Notes under the pieces: generated by a model
Databases searched by the model: none
Seen by the model: only the letters and a program-made list of their open reading frames with translations
What the model was told of the DNA's origin: nothing
Shown here: positions 3,073 through 23,635 of the stretch, one piece after another
How positions within the stretch are numbered: the first letter of the stretch is position 1
How the letters are laid out: every line of letters begins with the position of its first letter
Translations under genes and position numbers: made by a program
Assembly (NCBI GenBank): GCA_018401745.1
Contig: JAGYJY010000008.1
Location: forward strand, 31,699 to 95,698
DNA length: 64,000 bases
DNA from: Pirellulales bacterium
GTDB taxonomy: Bacteria > Planctomycetota > Planctomycetia > Pirellulales > UBA1268
Direction: 5' to 3'

Positions 3073-3852
3073 ATGTCTCGCTCCCCAGATCGCCTGAGCG
3101 TCTCCCGCCTCAACCGCCAGCGGCGGTTGGTCTGCGATGTGGTATCGGCGGCCCGACGCGTGCCGTTTTTTCCCGTGGAGCGGCTGATCGCCTTGCACGA
3201 GCTTGCTGCCGCCCGGGCTGCGGCCGCTTCGCGAATCGGCTGGGCCGCGATCTTCGTGAAGGCCTACGCCATCGTCGCCCGCGACATGCCGCCGCTCCGC
3301 AGCTGGTATGTGCCGGGCTTCTGGCCACGGCAAGCCACGAGCGGTGAGAGCGTGGCCACCCTCTCGATCAACCGTTCGATCGATGGAGCCGATCTGCTCT
3401 TCTGGGCCCAGCTTCCGTCGCCAGACCGGCAGCCACTCACGGAGCTGCAGGCGGCCATCGAGCACCGCACAACCGCCCCCGTAGACGAGGTCTTTCGCCG
3501 GCAGCAGGAGCTGGCCCGGCTGCCCGGCTGGCTGCGGCGAAGCGTGCTGTGGTGGAACCTGCACTCAACTTCTCGCAAGCGGCCCAAGCGGATGGGAACC
3601 TTCAGCGTGTCCACCCTCGCGAGCCACGCCGCCTTCAACCGGTTTCATCCAAGCCCCCTGACGACGAGCCTGACGTATGGGCCGCTCGACGACCAAGGCC
3701 GGAGCCTTGTCACGATCCTGGCCGACCACAGGCTGCTCGACGGTGTGCCCGTGGCCAAGGCGCTGGCACGGCTTGAGGAGGTGCTGCACACCGACATCGC
3801 CAGCGAGCTCGCGTCGGTCGCTGCGGCGAGGGTGGGCCGCACGGCAGCCTGA
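3073..3852 (+). CDS. Stand-alone acyltransferase with a 2-oxoacid dehydrogenase E2 catalytic-domain-like fold
   Basis: C-terminal DHRLLDG (DHRxxDG) active-site motif and AAIFVKAYA region; no lipoyl domain. ATG at 3073 chosen; the upstream part of ORF 2710..3852 is antisense to the isochorismatase gene. Confidence 0.6.
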   Translation: MSRSPDRLSVSRLNRQRRLVCDVVSAARRVPFFPVERLIALHELAAARAAAASRIGWAAIFVKAYAIVARDMPPLRSWYVPGFWPRQATSGESVATLSINRSIDGADLLFWAQLPSPDRQPLTELQAAIEHRTTAPVDEVFRRQQELARLPGWLRRSVLWWNLHSTSRKRPKRMGTFSVSTLASHAAFNRFHPSPLTTSLTYGPLDDQGRSLVTILADHRLLDGVPVAKALARLEEVLHTDIASELASVAAARVGRTAA

Positions 3853-3923: not shown

Positions 3924-4454
3924 TCAGCCGCTGCCCGCCGCAGCAGCCATTGCCGCCTGGTGGAGGGCGGGGCAGGTCGCCTCCAGATGGAGCCTCCGCG
4001 ATGAGATCCCGGTGATCTCGATCTGGATGCCGAGCCGTTCGTCAGGCAGGGCTGCAGCGATTCGCTCGGGCCACTCCACGGCCAGCCAGCCCTCGCCTGC
4101 CAGGATCTCTTCCCAACCGATCGTGGCCAGATCGTCGATACCTGTGAGGCGATACGCGTCGATATGGACCAGTCGTGATGGCTGCTGGCTGCCAACAGCC
4201 CCCGGCGGCACCTCGTGGACATGCACGAGGGTAAAGGTCGGGCTGGTCACATCTGATGGGTCGATCCCGACAGCTGCCGCGAGCTTCTTCACAAAGGTCG
4301 TCTTGCCAGCGCCCAGGTCGCCCTCGATGGCAAGCATCGCCCGCGGAGGCAGGGCCGCCGCCAGACGCATGGCAAACCTGGCGAGAGCTACCTCGTCAGC
4401 GCAGCTGACAACGGCGCTCGCGGGCCGCTCCCCCGTTGAGTCAGGTGAACGCAT
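3924..4454 (-). CDS. tsaE: tRNA threonylcarbamoyladenosine biosynthesis ATPase TsaE
   Basis: LAIEGDLGAGKTTFVK P-loop, SPTFTLVH, HIDAYRL motifs. Start at the internal ATG (4454) overlaps the thiL stop by 14 nt. Confidence 0.8.
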   Translation of the reverse strand: MRSPDSTGERPASAVVSCADEVALARFAMRLAAALPPRAMLAIEGDLGAGKTTFVKKLAAAVGIDPSDVTSPTFTLVHVHEVPPGAVGSQQPSRLVHIDAYRLTGIDDLATIGWEEILAGEGWLAVEWPERIAAALPDERLGIQIEITGISSRRLHLEATCPALHQAAMAAAAGSG

Positions 4455-5391
4455 GCTGATACCCGGAGGGAGGCAGGGGCGTGCGGCGGCCGTCTTCTGA
4501 AACGGCCACCAGGCCGCGATCGGCAACGACGCGTCCGATCGCCGTCAGGGGCGTGCCCGGCCAGCCTGCGAGACGCCCAGTTGCGATCGCACCCAGAAGC
4601 CGCTCCGCGTCGTCGGCAGCCAGACTGATCAACAGTTCGAAATCTTCGCCATCGCCCAGCGCCCGCATCAGGGGTGTGCCGCCGCTGGGATCGAGTTTCG
4701 CGGCTGTCACCGCATCGGCATGGATGGGCACCGCTGCCAGATCCACCTCGGCTCCACATCCACTGGCCTGCATCATCCTCGAGAGATCGAGGGCGAGGCC
4801 GTCGCTGATATCGATCGCCCCGTGCACAGCGACCGTGTCGGCGATCAGCCTGGCCTCGTTCACACGCGGCTCCACGGCGAGATGCCTGCCCGCCAGGCTC
4901 CCGCCCACCGCACCCGTGACGAGCACCACGTCCCCCACCCGACAGCCATCCCGCCTCCAGAGGCGGCCCGCCGCGACGCTCCCAAGCAACGCCACATTGA
5001 CCGCCAACGGCCCATCCCAGGAGGTGGTGTCGCCGCCGACGAGGGCGACGTCGAACCGCGTCGCGATTGCCAGCATCCCCTCCAAGAGCGCCTCTCCAAC
5101 GCTCTGCCCACCACTGCGTGGCAGCGAGACCGAGACCACGGCCGCTTCCGGACGACTGGCCATCGCCGCGAGATCGCTGAGGTTGACGGCGATCGCTTTG
5201 TGCCCCACCGCCCTCGGGTCGTAGTCGGGGGCTGACGGAAAGTGCACTCCCTCGCAGAGCATGTCGGTGCAGAACACGGTGCGTCGGCCCGCAGGCGGCC
5301 TAAGCACGGCCGCATCGTCGCCGTTGGGCACATCCAGCCGCGGGTCGGCAGCGAGCTTCGCCACCAGCCAGTCGATCAGCTGCTGCTCCAC
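4441..5391 (-). CDS. thiL: Thiamine-monophosphate kinase
   Basis: GDDAAVL, DMLCEGVHF and DISDGL motifs of the AIR-synthase-related ThiL family. GTG start at 5391. Confidence 0.85.
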   Translation of the reverse strand: MEQQLIDWLVAKLAADPRLDVPNGDDAAVLRPPAGRRTVFCTDMLCEGVHFPSAPDYDPRAVGHKAIAVNLSDLAAMASRPEAAVVSVSLPRSGGQSVGEALLEGMLAIATRFDVALVGGDTTSWDGPLAVNVALLGSVAAGRLWRRDGCRVGDVVLVTGAVGGSLAGRHLAVEPRVNEARLIADTVAVHGAIDISDGLALDLSRMMQASGCGAEVDLAAVPIHADAVTAAKLDPSGGTPLMRALGDGEDFELLISLAADDAERLLGAIATGRLAGWPGTPLTAIGRVVADRGLVAVSEDGRRTPLPPSGYQHAFT

Positions 5392-13725: not shown

Positions 13726-16700
13726 TCAGCTGCTGCCATCGGCGGCGGGCTTGTCGCGCTCGCGCGTGTCTGCTGGAGGCGGGCTCTCCAGCGGCGGCGG
13801 GTCGTCAAGAAACGACGTGAAGTTAAACGACTCGCCGTCGTCAGCGGCCGGCTTGGCAGCCGGCCTGGGCGGAGGAGGAGGCGGGTCGTCGACAGGTGTG
13901 CCCTGCGGCCGAGCCCGCATCGCCTCGGTAACGCCAGCAAGCCACTCTCCTTGCGGAAAAGCGTAGGGCCGGAACTTCTCCAGCGTGCCGGTCTCCTCGT
14001 GGATGAACAGCGCCCGCTGAGGACCAAGCTTGCTGGCAATCGGCGTTTCCACCAGCTGGCTCGAATCACTGCCGCTCATCTGAAACAAGACGCGGAGCTC
14101 GAACTCCTTGAGCGTTCCGCGTTCGAAGGTCCGCATCAGGTTGGTCAGCGAGTCGCACCAGACGATCGTGTGGACGCCCACGGTGGGGCCATCCTTGAGG
14201 ATGTTGATGAAGTGCTGGGCAGGCCCCAGCTTTTGCTCACTCCCGAAGGAGAAGCCGAAGTCGCCCTCGCTCTTGCGGAACTCCCGGAACCGAGCAAGGT
14301 CGCGAACGACCACGAAGATCGAATCGCCATCGAGCACCTGCTCGTCGAGCCGCCGCTGCACTTCCCCAGCAATCCGCTCGATCGCATCGCCAACACCGAG
14401 GCGACCAACACATTCCATGCGGTGCGGCAGCAGATCCGCGAACTGGGCGAGCATCGTCTCTGGATGCTCCTCAGCAATCGCTGGCTCAAACAGCACAAAG
14501 CGGGCCGGCCGGCCGAGGCCACCGCCAGGGAAGGGATCGTGGCCCGCCGCCAGACCCACCATCGCCATCGCCAGCAGGCTCGTCGCCAGATCCTGACGCT
14601 GGCCGACAATCAGCAGGTTGGAGCCACCCTGCCTGCGGAAGGGAGCGGCGGTCGGATCCTTGATCGCGATCGCATCCCCCAGCCAGGCCATGGCCACAGC
14701 GAGTTCCTTGGCATCGAGCAGGCCGCTTTCGGCCGTGCCTTTGCTGAGAAGGTCGCCTAGGAGGCTGTTGCCCGCTGGATCGGCAGCCTGGTTTCCATCG
14801 AACACAATCCGCGATAGCGGCTCGATATCAGGCCGCCTCGCCGCGAGCTGCTGCAACGCTCCCAGGTATTTCTCCCGCCGCTCGTCGCCAAGCCACACCA
14901 CCTGAAACGGATTGTTGCCCTCGACCATGCCGTTGGCGTCGTTGTAGATCGCTTCACCGGGCCGAGTGAGCAGCCGAGCCGCTGAGTTGTCTTCGCTGAG
15001 AATCAGCGAGCTGTCGGCCTCGTTGCACTGCAGAGCGATCCGCACGGCCATCTGGCCCATCGTGCTCCTGGGCAGGCTGTAGGAGCCGCCGAGCGTCTGT
15101 GAGCCGAGCAGCACGTGCATGCCGAAAGCACGCCCCTGCCGCACCAAGCGGTCGAGCACCAGCGAGGCATCCTGAGCGAGCTTGTCGTCTTCAATGAAGA
15201 TCTCCTGAAACTCGTCGATAATCAGCAGGATGCGAGGCATCGGCTCGGGGTGGCCCGAAGCCCGATACCCAGCCAGGTTTTGCACAGCGAGATCGCGAAA
15301 GAGGTCGCCGCGTCGCTTCAGCTCGCTGTCGAGCTGCTGCAGCACCGAGAGGCCAAACTCGCGTTCGCTTTCGATCGCGATCACGCGGGCATGTGGAAGC
15401 TTGTAGTGGTCGTAAACCTTAAACTCCACGCCCTTCTTAAAGTCGATGAGATAGAACTGCACTTCGTCGGGGCTGTAGGTCAACGCGAGGTTGGTAATCA
15501 ACGCATGCATCATCGTTGACTTACCAGAACCTGTCTTGCCGGCAATCAACACATGCTGGCTCGTGCCCTTGCCAAGTTTCATGTGCTGCATCTTCTTTGC
15601 GCCAGCAGGGCCCAGCGGCACATCAATCTGGTCGCCGCTATCCCCAGTCCACCAGTCGCCCTCTTCCGGCGCTACGCGCTCAAACGGCACCTCCACCCGC
15701 TTGGCGGCCTTCGCCAACCGGCCGGCGTTGTGGACAATCTTCGTCATCACGTCGTCGCCAGGCGACTGCTCAACCGCAAGCGGCCAGTTGGAAAACTCAG
15801 GGTCGCTCCAGCGGAAGCGGCCATCCTGCAGATCGAGGACGGTGGCGTATTTGGCCAGCTCGTCGATGCTGAAGTTGGCCGGCAGCTGCTGCTTCGTGTC
15901 GACCGAGATGATCGTGGAAACGCCGCAGCGGGCTCCGGAGGAGGCAATGCTGATCAGGCGGCGGGCGGAGGTTTCGGTGAAGTTGGCCGGGAAGTTGGCC
16001 ACCACGACAAAGCGATACGGCTCCGGCACCTCCGCATCCTGGTTGTAGGTACCGATTGATGCATACTCGTTGCGGAGATACTTCTGAATCACAAGCTCCA
16101 TCTGCTCTGTGATGTCGGCGAGCCGCTGCTCGATCTGCGTGGGCTCAGTCCAGATGCGACTGTTCACCAGCAGCTCGTCGTAGTCAGCCAGATGCATGAA
16201 ACCAGCGAAGTGTTTGCCGAGACCGACTGGATCGATGATCGTAAACCTGGTCTGGCCGGCAGGGATGCCTGTGGCGATTCGCAGCATCATCGCCTGCATC
16301 ATCTCAGACGCCACGTCGGCTTGGCCGGCTGATGTCTTGATCAGAAGCGAGGCTGCATCGGGAAACGGGGTCATCGACGGCTGTTGCCAGGCCGTCGGAC
16401 CGTAGGCGTTGAGCTCCGCATGGGGCGAGACACCGCCCTTGATCTTCTCAAGCGCGACCGCCAGCTGCCCAAACCGGAGGCCCACCGGCGCGTCGGCGGG
16501 GAAGGCCGCATCGTCTGTGGCCAGACGGTCCCAATCGGCAAAGGCCGCCGCGTCGTATTCGGCAGCCTGCCGCACTATTTCCGTGGCCGACTCCCGGGCC
16601 ACCTTCCAGCGGTCCACCATGTCCTGCCAACGGCTCGCCCGCCGGCTCTCGAGTTCGGCCAACCGATGATCCCGCTTGGTCTCGATGGTGGCCATTCGCT

Positions 16701-17145
16701 CGGCCCGCTGCCCTTCGAGCTTTTCAATCGCAGGCGGATAGGTGCCGCCAGCCTGCTCGAGCAGCTCTCTGCGTTTGGCTGCTGCCGACTCCACCGCTGC
16801 CGCCGCTTTGGCCTCCAGCGCGGCGAGTTCGGCATCCCGCTTGGCGGTCAACGTCTCGATGTCTGCCGCGAGCTTCTTCTGCCGCCGTGCAACCTCCTCC
16901 TTGTAGGTCTTTTCCAGCGACGCCTGCTGCTGATCGCGGCGGGCAGCGACAAAGGCAGCCGCTGCCGCCAGCGCCTTGCCTGCACGCTGAAAGTCTCGCT
17001 CCAGCTCGGCGAAGGCCGCCTGCGACGCTTCCTGCAGGAGCTTTGTCCTGCCAAAGACGTTGAGCATCCCAGCACCCGCCTTGGCTGCCGTCAGGCCCGC
17101 CAGGTTCTTCACCGCGTCAACCACCGCCTGATGGAGCTCTTTCAC
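13726..17145 (-). CDS. FtsK/SpoIIIE-family multi-domain ATPase (EssC/EccC-like) with an N-terminal coiled coil and no obvious TM segment
   Basis: One canonical P-loop (LIAGKTGSGKST) with Walker B (ILLIIDEFQ). It is flanked by two degenerate FtsK-like modules (TRFTIIDPVGLGKHF...RFVVVANF; NLLIVGQRQDLAT...IFVVVRDL). Pro-rich acidic C-terminal tail. I place the start at GTG 17145, which overlaps the upstream TGA as GTGA; the first 36 codons from the ORF-track ATG at 17253 are out-of-frame junk. Confidence 0.8.
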   Translation of the reverse strand: MKELHQAVVDAVKNLAGLTAAKAGAGMLNVFGRTKLLQEASQAAFAELERDFQRAGKALAAAAAFVAARRDQQQASLEKTYKEEVARRQKKLAADIETLTAKRDAELAALEAKAAAAVESAAAKRRELLEQAGGTYPPAIEKLEGQRAERMATIETKRDHRLAELESRRASRWQDMVDRWKVARESATEIVRQAAEYDAAAFADWDRLATDDAAFPADAPVGLRFGQLAVALEKIKGGVSPHAELNAYGPTAWQQPSMTPFPDAASLLIKTSAGQADVASEMMQAMMLRIATGIPAGQTRFTIIDPVGLGKHFAGFMHLADYDELLVNSRIWTEPTQIEQRLADITEQMELVIQKYLRNEYASIGTYNQDAEVPEPYRFVVVANFPANFTETSARRLISIASSGARCGVSTIISVDTKQQLPANFSIDELAKYATVLDLQDGRFRWSDPEFSNWPLAVEQSPGDDVMTKIVHNAGRLAKAAKRVEVPFERVAPEEGDWWTGDSGDQIDVPLGPAGAKKMQHMKLGKGTSQHVLIAGKTGSGKSTMMHALITNLALTYSPDEVQFYLIDFKKGVEFKVYDHYKLPHARVIAIESEREFGLSVLQQLDSELKRRGDLFRDLAVQNLAGYRASGHPEPMPRILLIIDEFQEIFIEDDKLAQDASLVLDRLVRQGRAFGMHVLLGSQTLGGSYSLPRSTMGQMAVRIALQCNEADSSLILSEDNSAARLLTRPGEAIYNDANGMVEGNNPFQVVWLGDERREKYLGALQQLAARRPDIEPLSRIVFDGNQAADPAGNSLLGDLLSKGTAESGLLDAKELAVAMAWLGDAIAIKDPTAAPFRRQGGSNLLIVGQRQDLATSLLAMAMVGLAAGHDPFPGGGLGRPARFVLFEPAIAEEHPETMLAQFADLLPHRMECVGRLGVGDAIERIAGEVQRRLDEQVLDGDSIFVVVRDLARFREFRKSEGDFGFSFGSEQKLGPAQHFINILKDGPTVGVHTIVWCDSLTNLMRTFERGTLKEFELRVLFQMSGSDSSQLVETPIASKLGPQRALFIHEETGTLEKFRPYAFPQGEWLAGVTEAMRARPQGTPVDDPPPPPPRPAAKPAADDGESFNFTSFLDDPPPLESPPPADTRERDKPAADGSS

Positions 17146-17774
17146 ATGGGCGAGGATCTCGCCGCCGGAGGGCAGGGAGTTTCCTGCTCGGCTGCAGCTG
17201 GCGGAGCTGACTCGGCTCCATCGATTTTCCGCTCGGCAAGAATCTTCAAACACTTCTCACGGAGTTTGGCAAAGTCCTGCGTGTAGGTCTCGAGGTGCTG
17301 TGAGTCTCGAGCAAAGAGTTTGCCCGGATCGCGTCGCCGCTCCTTGAACGACTCGGCCTCCGTGCTCTCCGCAAAATGCTCGTCTTCCTTCAGCTGCTCT
17401 TTTTTTTGTTCAGCCTGTCGCGTGATCTCGGCAGCCTTCGCATCACGCTGCCGCCCGACCGAGACCTCAGAGTCGCGATACTGCTTTTCAATCCGCTGCT
17501 GCAGTTCCTCAAACTCGCGTTTGGTGCTGGCAATCTTGTCGTCGTAGCGATCGATGGTTTCCTGAATGAGCCGATCCGCCTCCTGCTTCGTCGCCTCACA
17601 GCCGTTCTCGAAGTCGGCCACGATGGTCCGTTCGAGGCTTGCCCGGGTGGCCGCCTCTTCCCGCAGCGACGCGATCACGGCCCGCATCGCGTCGGGCGTG
17701 TAGCTGGAGGCACCAGCCACCTCAGCCAAAGCAGTGGTGGTCGAAGTCGTCGTTTCGTCCATCGAATCGGCCAT
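17142..17774 (-). CDS. Coiled-coil protein of unknown function (type VII-like cluster)
   Basis: 210-aa charged heptad-rich sequence (EFEELQQRIEKQYRD, KKEQLKEDEHFAEST). Same strand as, and stop/start-coupled with, the downstream ATPase. Confidence 0.6.
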   Translation of the reverse strand: MADSMDETTTSTTTALAEVAGASSYTPDAMRAVIASLREEAATRASLERTIVADFENGCEATKQEADRLIQETIDRYDDKIASTKREFEELQQRIEKQYRDSEVSVGRQRDAKAAEITRQAEQKKEQLKEDEHFAESTEAESFKERRRDPGKLFARDSQHLETYTQDFAKLREKCLKILAERKIDGAESAPPAAAEQETPCPPAARSSPM

Positions 17775-17920: not shown

Positions 17921-18157
17921 TCATTCCCCTCCGTATTCACTCACATCACGTGACGCACGGGAGAGCACCTCGGCCAGCCGGCCGAGCGCTTCAAGCGTTT
18001 CTTTGACTTTGGGTGTCAGCGGCTCGATGCAGTCTTTATGAAACTGCTTGGCCGTCTGATCGCGCCAGGTATCTTCGGCTGCCTGCCACTTGATATCGAG
18101 TTGCTTGACGGCCAGCGCGAGCTTCGACGCGCCACTGGCGAGATTGCCCGCCTTCAT
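17921..18157 (-). CDS. Small helical WXG100-like protein (78 aa)
   Basis: Two predicted helices around a central TWRDQTAKQF turn, which aligns with STWRDQEHQKF in the 90-aa paralog. ATG overlaps the upstream stop as ATGA. Confidence 0.6.
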   Translation of the reverse strand: MKAGNLASGASKLALAVKQLDIKWQAAEDTWRDQTAKQFHKDCIEPLTPKVKETLEALGRLAEVLSRASRDVSEYGGE

Positions 18158-18776
18158 GCTTCGCCTCCCGCCGTGTTGGCTTGCTCAGCTGGGGCACCTG
18201 ACGCCCTCTCAGCGGCCTTGGTGTCTTCGTCGAGCGAGCGACGCATGCTGCCCTCGCCGGATGTCTCCCCGGCAGCAGTTCCACCGGAAGGGCCCGACAT
18301 CTCACGGTAGGCCTCGAGGGCCTTGAGCATCCGTTCGACCAGTGCCATCGCCTTGGGCACATCGACATCGAGCACCTCGCGGAAGTGCACGAGCCGCACA
18401 CCCGTCTCGCGAAACTGCTGCTGCACGATCGGCGTCCAATGACGGACGGCCTCCGCCTTTTCCTCGGCCACCTGCAGCCGGCGGCGGGCCTTTTCCAGGT
18501 TCTTTTCTCTTCGGTGCAGGCCGGTGGGCCGTCGCCAGTGCTCTTGAAGGTGCGGCACTTCTCGAGGTCTTTCATCGCCTCGTTGACCTTCTCGCCGCGC
18601 CGCCGCACTTCGGCCTTCCAGTAGCCGGCCTGATCGACGGTGATCCACTCCACGCCGCGGCGGCCCTCCAGCTCGACCTCCGACAAGGCCTGACCGCACT
18701 CATACGCAAAGGTGGCCAGCGCCGCCTTGACGAAAGAAAGCGTGTCGATCGAACGGACTTCGGCCTGGCCTGCCAT
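18154..18776 (-). pseudogene. Helical protein of unknown function (about 208 aa if repaired); frame broken once near an A-run
   Basis: ORF 18036..18776 is protein-like only to ...KSTGDGPPACTEEK. ORF 18154..18699 is protein-like only from NLEKARRRLQVAEEKAEAV onward. Adding one A to the run at plus-strand 18503-18506 joins them. Confidence 0.6.
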
Positions 18777-18825
18777 GGAGGCAATCTCCTGCTGAGTATG
18801 AAGCGGAGCAGCTGCGGCGTTTCAC

Positions 18826-19098
18826 TCAACGCTGCTGCATGTATTCCTCAACACGCTCCGCTTTGCGGAGCAGGTAGGGGACATATTCGCCCGTCGACTC
18901 CACGAAACGCCCGAAGGTGGCAAGCTGCTGCTCAAACTCCTCGGAAAACTTCTGGTGCTCCTGGTCGCGCCAGGTCGAGCCGAGATGCTGGAGCTGCCGC
19001 TGCACGGTCTGCATGTGCGTCATCACCTCGCCGCTGAAATGCTTGAGACGCGCCGCGAATCGGCGAAGTTCATCCGGATCGACGATGGCCTGTCCCAT
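18826..19098 (-). CDS. Small helical WXG100-like protein (90 aa)
   Basis: MGQAIVDPDELRRFAARL... follows the ESAT-6/WXG100 layout: an N-terminal 'I.VDP..L..fA' helix, a central W43-R-D45 turn where WXG normally sits, then F..EF and a second helix. Confidence 0.65.
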   Translation of the reverse strand: MGQAIVDPDELRRFAARLKHFSGEVMTHMQTVQRQLQHLGSTWRDQEHQKFSEEFEQQLATFGRFVESTGEYVPYLLRKAERVEEYMQQR

Positions 19099-20200: not shown

Positions 20201-21001
20201 TCAACGACCATCCGCCGTGACGGCCGAGAAGACCAGCTCCACTGGCGTGCCGCGGGGCGGGACGCGGCTGTCGAAGACCTCAAAGAGCAACGCTTCGTTG
20301 GACTGCGAGCTGGCGATGGGCAGGTCGAGCATCGCGGTCGGGAAGTTCGACACGCAGACCAGGTCGCCACCATCGGCCTGATAATATTCCTCGCCCGTGG
20401 CCTCGTCTCGCCAAAACAAACTGCCCGCAAAGACCCAGTCGGTCTCCAGCGGCTTGCCTGTGCGGGTGTTGCGGACCCAGTCCTTGGCATCCCGCTTCTG
20501 AGGCTTGCCTTCGGCATCGGTCCACCGCACCTCAACACGCACCTGCGGGCCTCGCGCGGCACGATACTCCGGTGCGAACTGCACCGGCTCTCCGGGCTGC
20601 ATGCCGATCGCCAACAGACCGGTGTGCACCAGCCGCGCAGACGCATCGACCACCACCACCGATTCGTGCTCTTTCGTACGCCGCGGACAGGCAAAAAACT
20701 CAATCTGGCCCCGCTGCAGCGCCACCTCACCGCCGACCACCACCTGCCCGGCGTCACGATCCAGCCAGACCTTTTCCGTCGGCGAAAGCCGGCTCATCTC
20801 GGGATGCGGATCAGGAGCCGCGGTCGCTTCCGCTGAGGCCTCGTCGTCCGCGTGGGCCAGAGCAGGGCAGAGGATCAGGCCGCTCATCACAGCGACCACT
20901 GCCGCTCCACGCATCAGCGATCGCCACCAGAACACCACGGTTCTCGCGGCTGGCCGGCCCCTCAAAGCGTGCTTGGTGTGACGTCGCAGTCGCACAGTCA
21001 T
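20201..21001 (-). CDS. Secreted YdjY-domain-like protein
   Basis: Signal peptide (AAVVAVMSGLILCPALAHA), then a conserved-looking body (IEFFACPRRTKEHESVV, HTGLLAIGMQPG, ADGGDLVCVSNFPTAMLD). Start uncertain: 21001, 21019 or 20914. Confidence 0.6.
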   Translation of the reverse strand: MTVRLRRHTKHALRGRPAARTVVFWWRSLMRGAAVVAVMSGLILCPALAHADDEASAEATAAPDPHPEMSRLSPTEKVWLDRDAGQVVVGGEVALQRGQIEFFACPRRTKEHESVVVVDASARLVHTGLLAIGMQPGEPVQFAPEYRAARGPQVRVEVRWTDAEGKPQKRDAKDWVRNTRTGKPLETDWVFAGSLFWRDEATGEEYYQADGGDLVCVSNFPTAMLDLPIASSQSNEALLFEVFDSRVPPRGTPVELVFSAVTADGR

Positions 21002-21109
21002 CGTGGTGTTTCCGTCCATGCCGACCGCACCTCCAGGCCTCGCTGTCCCCTTGCCACCGGCTGCCGTGTTGTACCATACGTCGCGACTGCCCCCGCGAGG
21101 AGAGAAGCG

Positions 21110-22871
21110 ATGCCATCCGGCACGACCGAAGCACCCGAAGCCGCCCACCCCACAGCAGACGAAGCAGAGCCAGCGGCGGAGGCCACGGCACAGCCACGCA
21201 CAGCCCGGCAGTGGCGTCCTGGCAAGTCGCTGGTGAGTCGCCGGCTTGAGGCTCTGGCTCTGCGGGCAACGGTGCCGGCACATCGGCAGCAGTGTGCCAA
21301 GCTCGCTCGGCGACTCCAGGCCACGGCTGGCTCAGCGAAGCGGGCAGGGCGGATCGACGCGGCCGTTGCAGCCCTGCTGGCCGACGCTGACACGGGCTCG
21401 GCCGATGGCCTGCTGCTGCTCGAAGCAGCCACCTGGGTCGTTGCCTGGCGGCAGGGCTCCAAGCATGCCGGCAGCACCGCTTCGCTGGAAGCCACGCTGC
21501 TCGCCGAGGCCGACGAGGCAGAGGCCCGCCTGAGTGATGGCGACACCGCCGGCGGTGCATTCGTGCTCGCGGCGAGCCGCCTGCTGCAGGTGAGAACCGG
21601 CAAGCAACGCAGCCTGGCGGAGGCGAGTGTCTGGACCGCCTGCGAGGCGGAGATTATGAGACTCGTCACCTCCTCAGGCGTCGTGTCGCTCGACGACTCA
21701 GCGGCTGTCGTCAGCCGTGTTGCCCGCTGGACCCACATCCGAGATACCGCTGCAGCCGCCGCCAAGGGGGCCAAGGCAAAGCAGGCGTTTGCCCGCAAGG
21801 CTGAGCAACGCTGGAAGAAAGCGATCGCTGCCGCGTTGCGGCTGCTGGGCCCTGGCGGAAAGCCAGTCCCGACAAGCGACACGGCACGGCTCCCGGCCGT
21901 GTTCGGTGATGCGATCGTCCAGGCCGCCGCCCGCCACGGCGGCAAAGCAGTCCGCAAGGCGGCGTCGCTGCTTCGGCTCCCATCGCAAAAGCGGCCCAAG
22001 CGTGAAGCTGGGGCGGTCGACCTCAACCTCGATGATCGCCAGGCAGCAGTCATCGTGCTTCGCAGCAGCTGGCAGGGGCGGCCGATGCGGGTCTTGCTCG
22101 ACTATCGCAGCGAGCAGCCACACCTCGAGGTGGCAGCTGGCAGCCGGATGCTTCTGCACGGCCCATGGCAGTGGCAGGTGCATTCCGGACGTGAACGCCT
22201 CTCCGCCGAGGGACCCTGGACCGTCAGCCACCACGAGGAAGACGACGACGTCACCCTTCTGGTGATTGCCGCGATGCTCACCGGCGGCCTGCGGCTTGAG
22301 CGGCATCTGCTGCTTGGCCGAGCGGATCGCGTGATGCTGCTGGCCGATGCGGTGGTCGACGCTGGCGGCGACCAGGCTCCCACGGGCCTGTCCTACCGAG
22401 GCAGCCTGCCGGTCGCGGCTGGCTGCGACGTAACAGCCGCCGCCGAGACCCGCGAGCTGACCATCGCCGATACCAAGCCCCAGGCGATGCTGATGCCGCT
22501 GGCCTTGCCGGAGTGGAACTGCGGACACACAGAACACACCTGGGGCTGGCAGGCGAGCAGCCGAGCGATCCAGCTCGAACAGCGGTCGCCCGTGCGACGG
22601 CTCTTCGCGCCGGTCTGGGTCGACCTGGAAGCCCGCCGCTTTCGCACCCAGGTCACCTGGCGGCAGCTGACGGTCGCCGACACCCGCGTGATTCTGCGGC
22701 CCGAGCAGGCGGCCGGCTTCCGCATCCAGGCTGCACTCACCCAGTGGCTGCTCTACCGGTCGCTCGACGAACCCCGCAACCGTACCTTCCTCGGCTGCAA
22801 CCTTTCCAGCTTCTTTCGGCTGGGCAAAGCTGGGCGACGACGGACTCGTTTCACAGATGGCCGAATGGTAG
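21110..22871 (+). pseudogene. Large hypothetical protein (possibly heparinase II/III-like C-terminal region); 3' end probably frame-shifted into yggS
   Basis: ATG 21110 is preceded by GAGGAGAG. The sequence is protein-like throughout. As sequenced it reads in frame into yggS. Removing one T from the run at 22814-22816 gives ...SSFFGWAKLGDDGLVSQMAEW and a TAG at 22869-22871. Confidence 0.5.
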
Positions 22872-23635
22872 ACGCTTTTTCTCAAGCCCCTGCCGAAGCG
22901 GCTGACCCCCGCACCGCCCGACTGCGAGCAAACCTCGCTGCGGTTCGCGGTCGCGTGGCCGATGCCTGCGGCAGGGCGGGCAGAAATCCAGACGATGTGC
23001 GTATTGTCGGCGTGAGCAAATACGTGTCTGCCGACGACACTGCCCGCCTCGTCGACTGCGGCCTTCGTGATCTCGGCGAAAGCCGCCCGCAGCTGCTCTG
23101 GGAAAAAGCAGAGGCTCTCGCCAGCCATCCACAAACTCCGCGGTGGCACATGATCGGCCACCTGCAGCGAAACAAACTTCGCCGCACCCTGCCGCTGCTC
23201 TCGCTGCTGCATTCACTCGACAGCCATCGGTTGGCGACGGCGATCTCGGAGGAGGCCGCCAAATCGGGCACGTCTTGCAACGTGCTGATCGAGGTCAATC
23301 TCACCAGTGATCCCGGCCGAACGGGCGTCAGCTTTGCCGAGCTTGAGCCACTCGCCGAGGCTGTCGCTGCCAGCAGTGCGATGCAGCTGTGCGGCTTGAT
23401 GGGGATGGCTGACAGGCCTGACCGGCCGGGCGACTCACCGCGAACACAGTTTGCCCGGCTTCGTGAGGCTCGCGACCGGCTGCAGAGCCTGTTTGCTCCA
23501 CCCACCACTCCCGGTCATGTACGTGGCGAACTCTCGCTCGGCATGAGCGGCGACTTTGAAGAGGCCATCCTCGAGGGGTCGACGATGGTGCGGATCGGCT
23601 CCGTGCTCTGGGAAGGGTTGCTGCCCGAAAGCTGA
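22865..23635 (+). CDS. yggS: YggS-family pyridoxal-phosphate homeostasis protein
   Basis: VRIVGVSKYV (PLP Lys), DLGESRPQ, WHMIGHLQRNK, SLGMSGDFEEAI, VRIGSVLW. Confidence 0.85.
   Translation: MVDAFSQAPAEAADPRTARLRANLAAVRGRVADACGRAGRNPDDVRIVGVSKYVSADDTARLVDCGLRDLGESRPQLLWEKAEALASHPQTPRWHMIGHLQRNKLRRTLPLLSLLHSLDSHRLATAISEEAAKSGTSCNVLIEVNLTSDPGRTGVSFAELEPLAEAVAASSAMQLCGLMGMADRPDRPGDSPRTQFARLREARDRLQSLFAPPTTPGHVRGELSLGMSGDFEEAILEGSTMVRIGSVLWEGLLPES

Follow-up and report, generated by a model that had tools for sequence, protein, structure and literature searches.

The segment between positions 17921 and 19098 of a 64,000-nucleotide stretch of DNA from a Pirellulales bacterium (contig JAGYJY010000008.1; the whole stretch is called here the window, and coordinates are window positions unless a related locus is named) carries three minus-strand genes, encoding proteins of 90, about 209 and 78 amino acids (aa), directly followed by a large gene for an ATPase of the FtsK/SpoIIIE type. 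The locus is interpreted as the front of a four-gene operon acting as a minimal module resembling type VII secretion systems (T7SS; ESX/Ess), a reading to which we assign a probability of roughly 60%. The 90-aa protein and its putative remote paralog of 78 aa, both bearing a W-R-D motif, together with the third helical protein, would be substrates or co-factors of an EssC-like motor.

The product of the first gene (18826..19098, minus strand) scores 36.7 bits against the WXG100 family of Pfam (PF06013), above the gathering score of 27.3, while the cut-off of the corresponding NCBIfam model TIGR03930 is not reached (34.4 against 44.85 bits). An AlphaFold2 model obtained with 75 homologs, with a predicted local distance difference test score (pLDDT) of 89, contains two helices, at residues 8-42 and 47-89, and leaves W43-R44-D45-Q46 as the loop between them (the W43-R44-D45 codons lie at 18964..18972 on the minus strand). 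When this model was compared with the PDB using Foldseek, the best matches were all WXG100 structures, namely B. anthracis EsxB, S. aureus EsxA, HP0062 of H. pylori, G. thermodenitrificans EsxA, GBS1074 and CFP-10/ESAT-6, with template modelling (TM) scores of about 0.8 (0.74-0.86). Furthermore, in sequence alignment the W-A-G of B. anthracis EsxB falls under the W-R-D of the 90-aa protein. Taken by its sequence and its model, this protein is a WXG100 helix-turn-helix hairpin of the EsxA/HP0062 kind, with W-R-D at the turn usually held by W-x-G. The sequence-only reading from which this work started had placed the motif at the WXG site and between two helices, and the alignment, the fold matches and the modelled loop bear this out, the motif lying outside both helices; the two small open reading frames (ORFs) that it had quoted are also present on the minus strand, with exactly the peptides given, and with W43 and D45 at the residues it had assigned to them.

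Many of the 1066 homologs of the 90-aa protein found in the protein collection already bear the name 'WXG100 family type VII secretion target' or 'YukE', the named ones being attributed to Planctomycetota, and a precomputed PF06013 assignment is attached to homologs. Conservation is high in the C-terminal tail, LLRKAERVEEYMQQR, for which the family consensus is LLRKAERIEEYLQQR, with L76, K79, A80 and Y86 retained. In common with the canonical WXG100 proteins (ESAT-6/CFP-10, EsxA, EsxB, sagEsxA), the protein belongs to PF06013, has the size of a helix-turn-helix of approximately 90-100 aa with a Trp at the turn, and is genetically linked to an ATPase of the EccC/EssC type. It differs from them in that the canonical W-x-G is absent, the position of the motif Gly being occupied by an invariant Asp, in that the host is a diderm planctomycete, and in that the two putative paralogs are split by a third gene instead of being bicistronic. 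The missing W-x-G does not exclude the protein from the family, because HP0062, a family member, presents the same exception.

Of the proteins with a solved structure, HP0062 (PDB 3FX7, 2GTS) is also the one nearest in sequence to the 90-aa protein (E 7e-7), and it reads ...SWRDARRDKFSE... around the motif. Both proteins share W-R-D followed by ..KF, an acidic-Tyr motif at the C-terminus (LEEDYL in HP0062, VEEYM in the 90-aa protein) and a helical hairpin of similar length (TM of about 0.8 to the model), although their identity is only about 26% and HP0062 has been reported as a homodimer. A review of 2012, citing a crystal structure of 2009, placed the WRD of HP0062 in the hairpin bend (PMC3397514), and HP0062 together with the FtsK/SpoIIIE protein HP0066 has been called a minimal type VII set (PMC4978471); in the literature, the HP0062 gene adjoins the FtsK/SpoIIIE gene, and a DnaK homolog and an HNH nuclease are placed in one group with the H. 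pylori locus. The divergent WXG100 subfamily that had been proposed from the sequence is therefore maintained as a W-x-D clade signature but not as something new, since HP0062 shows the same WRD at its bend and planctomycetal proteins are already annotated as WXG100 by NCBI. In other words, the W-x-D turn as such is not a discovery.

What is conserved at this turn can be delimited from the homologs. Among homologs of the 90-aa protein, the closest 120 all keep WRD. A profile searched against 1.84 billion cluster representatives gave 1459 relatives, and the distant representatives that were fetched read nearly all W-[R>Q,K,S,N]-D-[QR]-E; a diverse alignment with HP0062 among its members has as its only invariant columns F14, W43, D45, F51, L76 and Y86. 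In the 78-aa family, W and D are likewise invariant, while the middle residue can be R, N, D, K, S, H, Q or A, and TWRDQ, the block that had been singled out as common to both small proteins, is confined to the nearest relatives. Taking into account that the middle residue varies in the homologs while W and D do not, the conserved signature in these alignments is W-x-D (with R preferred), accompanied in the 90-aa family by the conserved C-terminal tail, and not TWRDQ; hence the homolog collection extends the motif to the whole clade in its W-x-D form only. An exact 5-mer common to both small proteins arose in 979 of 200,000 shuffles, approximately 0.5%. With respect to its role, the Asp that replaces the Gly would probably end helix 1 or cap helix 2, and it is likely to be a contact residue as well, because it stays invariant where all else drifts. 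One further relative, P0376, contains two tandem W-R-D domains in a single protein of 186 aa.

The 78-aa protein is encoded at 17921..18157, minus strand, by a gene whose ATG shares bases with the end of the 209-aa gene, start and stop codons overlapping as ATGA. The protein is unannotated in public sources, the named copies being all 'hypothetical protein' and none of the public copies carrying a Pfam domain. Nevertheless, several lines of evidence point to WXG100. A hidden Markov model (HMM) of the diverse 90-aa family recovered the 78-aa ORF as its only other match among the 918 ORFs of the window (25.5 bits, E 5e-7), along nearly its full length and with W-R-D, the Phe after it and the final EY all in register, whereas the best of 5,000 shuffles of the same protein reached 12.2 bits. 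WXG100 is matched at E<=0.01 by 11 of 32 orthologs, none of them above threshold, and no other Pfam family recurs among them. Comparison of both family profiles with hhalign put W-x-D on W-x-D, but with a probability of only 42% (E 2.7e-4); the reverse search, with an HMM of the 78-aa family, did not recover the 90-aa ORF, and in the PDB the 78-aa protein and its family profiles gave no WXG100 structure beyond a weak T. curvata EsxA (E 0.64), the other matches being designed helical repeats, an outcome favouring neither side. In the 32 orthologs, which descend to 27% identity, W31 and D33 are the sole invariant residues (W31-R32-D33 codons at 18059..18067, minus strand). Their position at a turn is suggested by the alignment and by a crude alignment-averaged helix-propensity/helix-breaker profile, which has its mid-protein minimum at residues 32-35, with amphipathic flanks, and a second dip at the conserved P46-P49. 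With moderate confidence, the 78-aa protein can be considered a remote WXG100 paralog whose N-terminus is shorter by roughly a dozen residues. The paralogous pair announced by the sequence-only reading is thus sustained by the family score of the 90-aa protein and by the register of the 78-aa protein with the family HMM, and weakened by the hhalign probability and by the scores of the 78-aa protein, which fall below the curated cut-offs. As additional observations, a second Trp (W24) is kept in the 78-aa family seven residues before W-x-D, and many of the divergent orthologs (L053-L087) end in R-[DE]-C-x, with a near-terminal Cys where the clade of the window has R-D-V-S.

These data also bear on a different interpretation, which we regard as quite improbable, in which the 90-aa protein pairs with itself, as HP0062 or sagEsxA do, and the 78-aa protein is not its dimer partner but a separate accessory protein or chaperone, or even an unrelated helical protein that has converged on W-x-D. 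For HP0062 a homodimer has indeed been described (PMC3397514), homodimeric proteins of the EsxA/EsxB types head the list of folds matched by the 90-aa model, the two small genes are separated by the 209-aa gene, unlike the bicistronic pairs that encode heterodimers, and the low hhalign probability, the lack of a WXG100 match in the PDB and the failed reverse search point in the same direction. This interpretation fits poorly, however, with an alignment that runs along the full length with three elements in register and scores 25.5 bits against a shuffle maximum of 12.2, with WXG100 being the sole Pfam family that recurs across the orthologs, and with the conserved linkage between the 90-aa and 78-aa genes.

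Both small genes are under selection. Using as reference a related locus (L005) with approximately 80% DNA identity to the window, which also served for the comparison of reading frames, the ratio of nonsynonymous to synonymous substitution rates (dN/dS) amounted to 0.005 (90-aa gene) and 0.047 (78-aa gene), dS being about 0.9. This strong purifying selection indicates that both are real and strongly constrained genes.

Relatives of the 90-aa protein were sought in a scan with one genome per species, and they appeared in at least 585 species genomes. Nearly all of the 80 loci that were fetched come from genomes labelled Planctomycetota, with a few metagenome-assembled genomes (MAGs) that have another or no phylum label; they include Pirellulales, Planctomycetaceae, Isosphaeraceae, Gemmataceae-type MAGs and Singulisphaera sp. 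Ch08, and the nearest is from a Pirellulales MAG. Wherever a sampled locus extends far enough to hold all four genes, these follow one another as 90-aa, 209-aa-like, 78-aa-like and ATPase gene, so that the linkage to the ATPase is conserved, and in the window the four genes lie on the same strand. The outer neighbours, a gene for a chlorite-dismutase-like protein and another for a trypsin-PDZ protease, are kept only among close relatives, and for this reason the four genes are considered a conserved unit; the genes flanking the operon carry unrelated Pfam families. It has to be mentioned that two loci from the same MAG (L084 and L086, JAKVCC01) are two whole four-gene modules in one bin, either paralogous loci or the result of a mixed bin.

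The gene for the ATPase (13726..17774, minus strand; Pfam FtsK_SpoIIIE, 1.2e-33) is split over two frames in the window. A single canonical FtsK/SpoIIIE ATPase domain is located at 15094..15633, minus strand, corresponding to residues 541-720 of a 1175-aa ORF, and when one base is restored the protein has about 1349 aa, with an N-terminal coiled coil and one canonical Walker A/B domain (GKTGSGKS and ILLIIDE in the L005 ortholog). The regions flanking this domain carry degenerate P-loop-like motifs, seen by eye. The best NCBIfam matches are EccCa, EssC and EccCb, all of them far under their cut-offs (114 against 509 bits for EccCa), and the best relatives in the PDB are T. curvata EccC (5.9e-34), EccC5 and B. 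subtilis YukB, with FtsK far behind (2.8e-12). Judged by its sequence, then, the ATPase resembles EccC, EssC and YukB more than it does the DNA translocase FtsK. Upstream of the ATPase region, around residues 220-290, most orthologs also have two stretches of strong hydrophobicity, as occurs in EssC and EccC; the orthologous ATPases at L001 (11300-15526) and L013 (8119-12291) were used to compare this transmembrane hairpin. On the other hand, in these ATPases a long N-terminal coiled coil replaces the FHA or DUF domains of EccC, EssC and YukB, and one ATPase domain is recognisable. Assignment to a defence system was considered and rejected, PADLOC giving only generic ATPase-domain matches (SspH, mad8, HerA).

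Between both small genes lies the third one (18154..18776, minus strand), which falls within the same coordinates as the pair and had passed without mention in the initial description of the segment. It encodes a protein of about 209 aa, is split over two frames in the window, and its product has no match in Pfam (E<=0.1) or NCBIfam and, as a profile, none in the PDB. Among its 252 homologs, the named ones are all 'hypothetical' except for one stray JGI label. An AlphaFold2 model of an intact ortholog, P0171 (pLDDT 79, above 90 in the helices at residues 2-77 and 88-161), predicts one long hairpin followed by a disordered, acidic and Pro-rich tail, and Foldseek related this model only to generic antiparallel coiled coils (SMC arms, chemoreceptors, SH3BP5). 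The loop of the hairpin is flanked by the invariant C74 and C87, which suggests a disulfide or a metal clasp; the loop reads C-R-T-F-K-K-x-G-D-x-x-P-x-C in the family, and the cysteines are absent from a fused variant, P0392. It is not claimed that this protein is WXG100-like: a weak alignment put W114 on the WXG Trp, at an hhalign probability below 1%.

P0392 (L088 2816-3604) is a natural in-frame fusion of 262 aa, made up of a 90-aa-like W-Q-D domain, a GGGSG linker and a 209-like domain; downstream of it in the same locus are a 72-aa W-H-D protein (3624-3842) and then a coiled-coil ORF (4147-4698) similar to the N-terminal part of the ATPase. On the basis of this fusion it is argued that the WXG100 protein and the long hairpin interact, although the geometry of the complex is not thereby supported. 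As regards that geometry, an analogy can be drawn with the LXG-Lap1-Lap2 and PE-PPE systems, which also have an elongated helical protein of about 200 aa plus two small hairpins upstream of an EssC-like ATPase; for the locus described here the likeness concerns genes and monomer models. In the case of LXG-LapA3-LapA4, an elongated tripartite bundle that forms the T7SS targeting signal has been solved (Klein et al. 2024, PMC10801868). The long helices of the 209-aa family (76 and 74 residues, about 75) compare with the approximately 40 and 30-38 residues of the helices in the small hairpins, which add up to roughly that length, dimensions compatible with one small protein per end. Nevertheless, the module has no sequence similarity to the LXG or Lap families and no toxin domain, the tail of the 209-aa protein being of low complexity and disordered.

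By this analogy, the two small hairpins and the long hairpin would assemble into an elongated helical bundle, each small protein lying near a different end. Recognition by the ATPase would then take place at both W-x-D turns and at the very conserved tail of the 90-aa protein (L76, K79, A80, Y86), and the ATPase would subsequently translocate or remodel the complex. In its most complete form, the proposal is that of an LXG/Lap-like tripartite bundle whose W-x-D turns are recognised by an EssC-like motor, within a vertically inherited, phylum-wide relative of the T7SS in Planctomycetia, the membrane anchor of the motor having been lost in several lineages, including that of the window, which would imply a new docking partner or a cytoplasmic function. 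So detailed a scheme is put forward with considerable doubt, and we would sooner expect some part of it to fail.

Several observations weigh against a T7SS-like function of the module. The 78-aa protein stays under the curated cut-offs for WXG100, with 22.8 bits against PF06013 (E 1.1e-4; gathering score 27.3) and 21.1 bits against TIGR03930 (cut-off 44.85). The 209-aa family has no detectable sequence relation to WXG100 or LXG, and its hhalign probability with both WXG-like families is below 1%. Regular-expression searches for YxxxD/E, HxxxD/ExxhxxxH and FxxxD found none of them in either small protein, which also separates these proteins from canonical WXG100 members with respect to the first two; the absence of YxxxD/E had been anticipated by the sequence-only reading, which had named the SEYGGE at the end of the 78-aa protein, present there as stated, as the closest approach. 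HxxxD/ExxhxxxH is the C-terminal export pattern reportedly described by Poulsen et al. in 2014. In the ATPase, only one domain is detectable, and a single-sequence search of its flanking regions against the PDB gave nothing significant. The transmembrane hairpin is cleanly deleted in the ATPases of the window, L005 and L009, in this differing from EccC, EssC and YukB, and it was not found either in those of L011, L012, L015, L045, L048, L050 and L051. No other membrane component of the T7SS (EccB/D/E, MycP, EssA/EssB/EsaA) occurs in the operon or is consistently linked nearby, and a literature search yielded no experimental secretion data for planctomycetes. Export across the diderm planctomycetal envelope is not something that these sequences establish.

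The deletion of the hairpin in the lineage of the window is the main argument for cytoplasmic action or for docking to another partner. It gives substance to an alternative that we judge unlikely, in which the module would be cytoplasmic and non-secretory. The helical proteins would in that case not be exported effectors but would serve a soluble or peripherally attached FtsK-like motor as adaptors, regulators or substrates, the motor taking part in a central process of the cell, for example remodelling of the envelope or related to division. In the window, L005, L009 and several other lineages the ATPase has no hairpin, yet the small proteins are under very strong constraint; no other membrane component is linked to the module, which is widespread in Planctomycetota, keeps its order and looks vertical; and in the clade of the window its neighbours are of the housekeeping type (dnaG, rpoD, greA). 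The hairpin is, however, present in most of the orthologous ATPases, and these are nearest to secretion ATPases and not to FtsK. Moreover, those WXG100 proteins that have been studied act as T7SS substrates or co-factors, and some W-x-D domains are fused to C-terminal extensions, as in exported polymorphic toxins.

The T7SS-like reading has a precedent in the same phylum. In planctomycetes and several other Gram-negative lineages, Zhang et al. (2012) reported solo WXG genes accompanied by a distinct YueA-like ATPase, under the term 'mobile versions of T7SS' (PMC3482391). The locus described here is of the same kind, its ATPase likewise combining a single active P-loop domain with flanking regions that bear the degenerate P-loop-like motifs seen by eye; by sequence, only one ATPase domain was confirmed here. 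The W-x-D turn, the second, cryptic paralog and the 209-aa hairpin are not mentioned in that account (PMC3482391), and the module, instead of being mobile, looks vertically conserved.

That term has to be taken into account when considering whether the module could be a mobile system of inter-bacterial conflict, a minimal T7SS that delivers polymorphic toxins, as has been proposed for the solo WXG genes with a YueA-like ATPase of Gram-negative bacteria, an explanation to which we give very little credit. In its favour, besides the wording of Zhang et al. (2012), is the fact that, for H. pylori and other proteobacteria, the literature places WxG and FtsK genes next to nucleases and TerY-P islands. 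Among the relatives analysed here, P0366 (227 aa) and P0400 (349 aa) consist of a W-x-D domain followed by a C-terminal extension, and the short contig of P0366 (L089 223-1849) contains a WXG100 gene, a 117-aa ORF, the WXG-fusion gene and an overlapping small ORF, a layout resembling that of toxin-immunity pairs. However, no Pfam match was obtained for the C-terminal extensions of P0366 and P0400, the operon of the window is devoid of toxin or immunity genes, the module is syntenic across the phylum with no sign of mobility in the loci examined, and the PADLOC matches are those generic ones already mentioned.

The relevance of the T7SS-like reading lies less in the turn than in the module. A minimal set of WXG100 and EssC-like proteins emerges as a conserved and strongly constrained feature of Planctomycetia, diderm bacteria in which type VII secretion is unstudied, and two unannotated partner families are added to it, namely a cryptic WXG100-like protein in which only the Trp and Asp of the turn are invariant, and a long helical hairpin protein, which together offer concrete, testable candidates for recognition by the ATPase. 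Should the turn motif be a recognition element and not a mere structural turn, it would bear on how the ATPases of T7SSs select their substrates, and the lineages with a deleted transmembrane hairpin are natural experiments on the need for membrane insertion.

The interruption of two of the four genes in the window deserves some comment. Comparison by tblastn with the intact L005 ortholog locates the change of frame of the 209-aa gene near 18489-18528. There, the minus strand reads GAG AAA AGA ACC TGG where the orthologs encode E-K-K-N-L-E-K, and a run of five A residues instead of the four present at 18503..18506 restores the frame. In the ATPase gene, a run of three C residues at 17175..17177 replaces the four expected, and one added C gives an unbroken protein of 1349 aa, collinear with those of L005 and L009. 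These apparent frameshifts are probably errors of the consensus sequence and not signs of decay; the possibility that both genes are pseudogenes was considered and rejected as the likeliest explanation, because the changes are single-base deficits in homopolymers and the adjacent small genes are strongly constrained.

A promoter scan of the region found nothing, and terminator-like sites were at background level. Further genes of the window may carry similar homopolymer indels. A 927-aa ORF on the plus strand (20852-23635) is an apparent fusion of two genes that are separate and overlapping in related loci, and may be an indel artefact; its counterparts in those loci (L005 5411-7935) are a 593-640-aa unknown protein and a YggS/Ala_racemase_N protein of about 249 aa.

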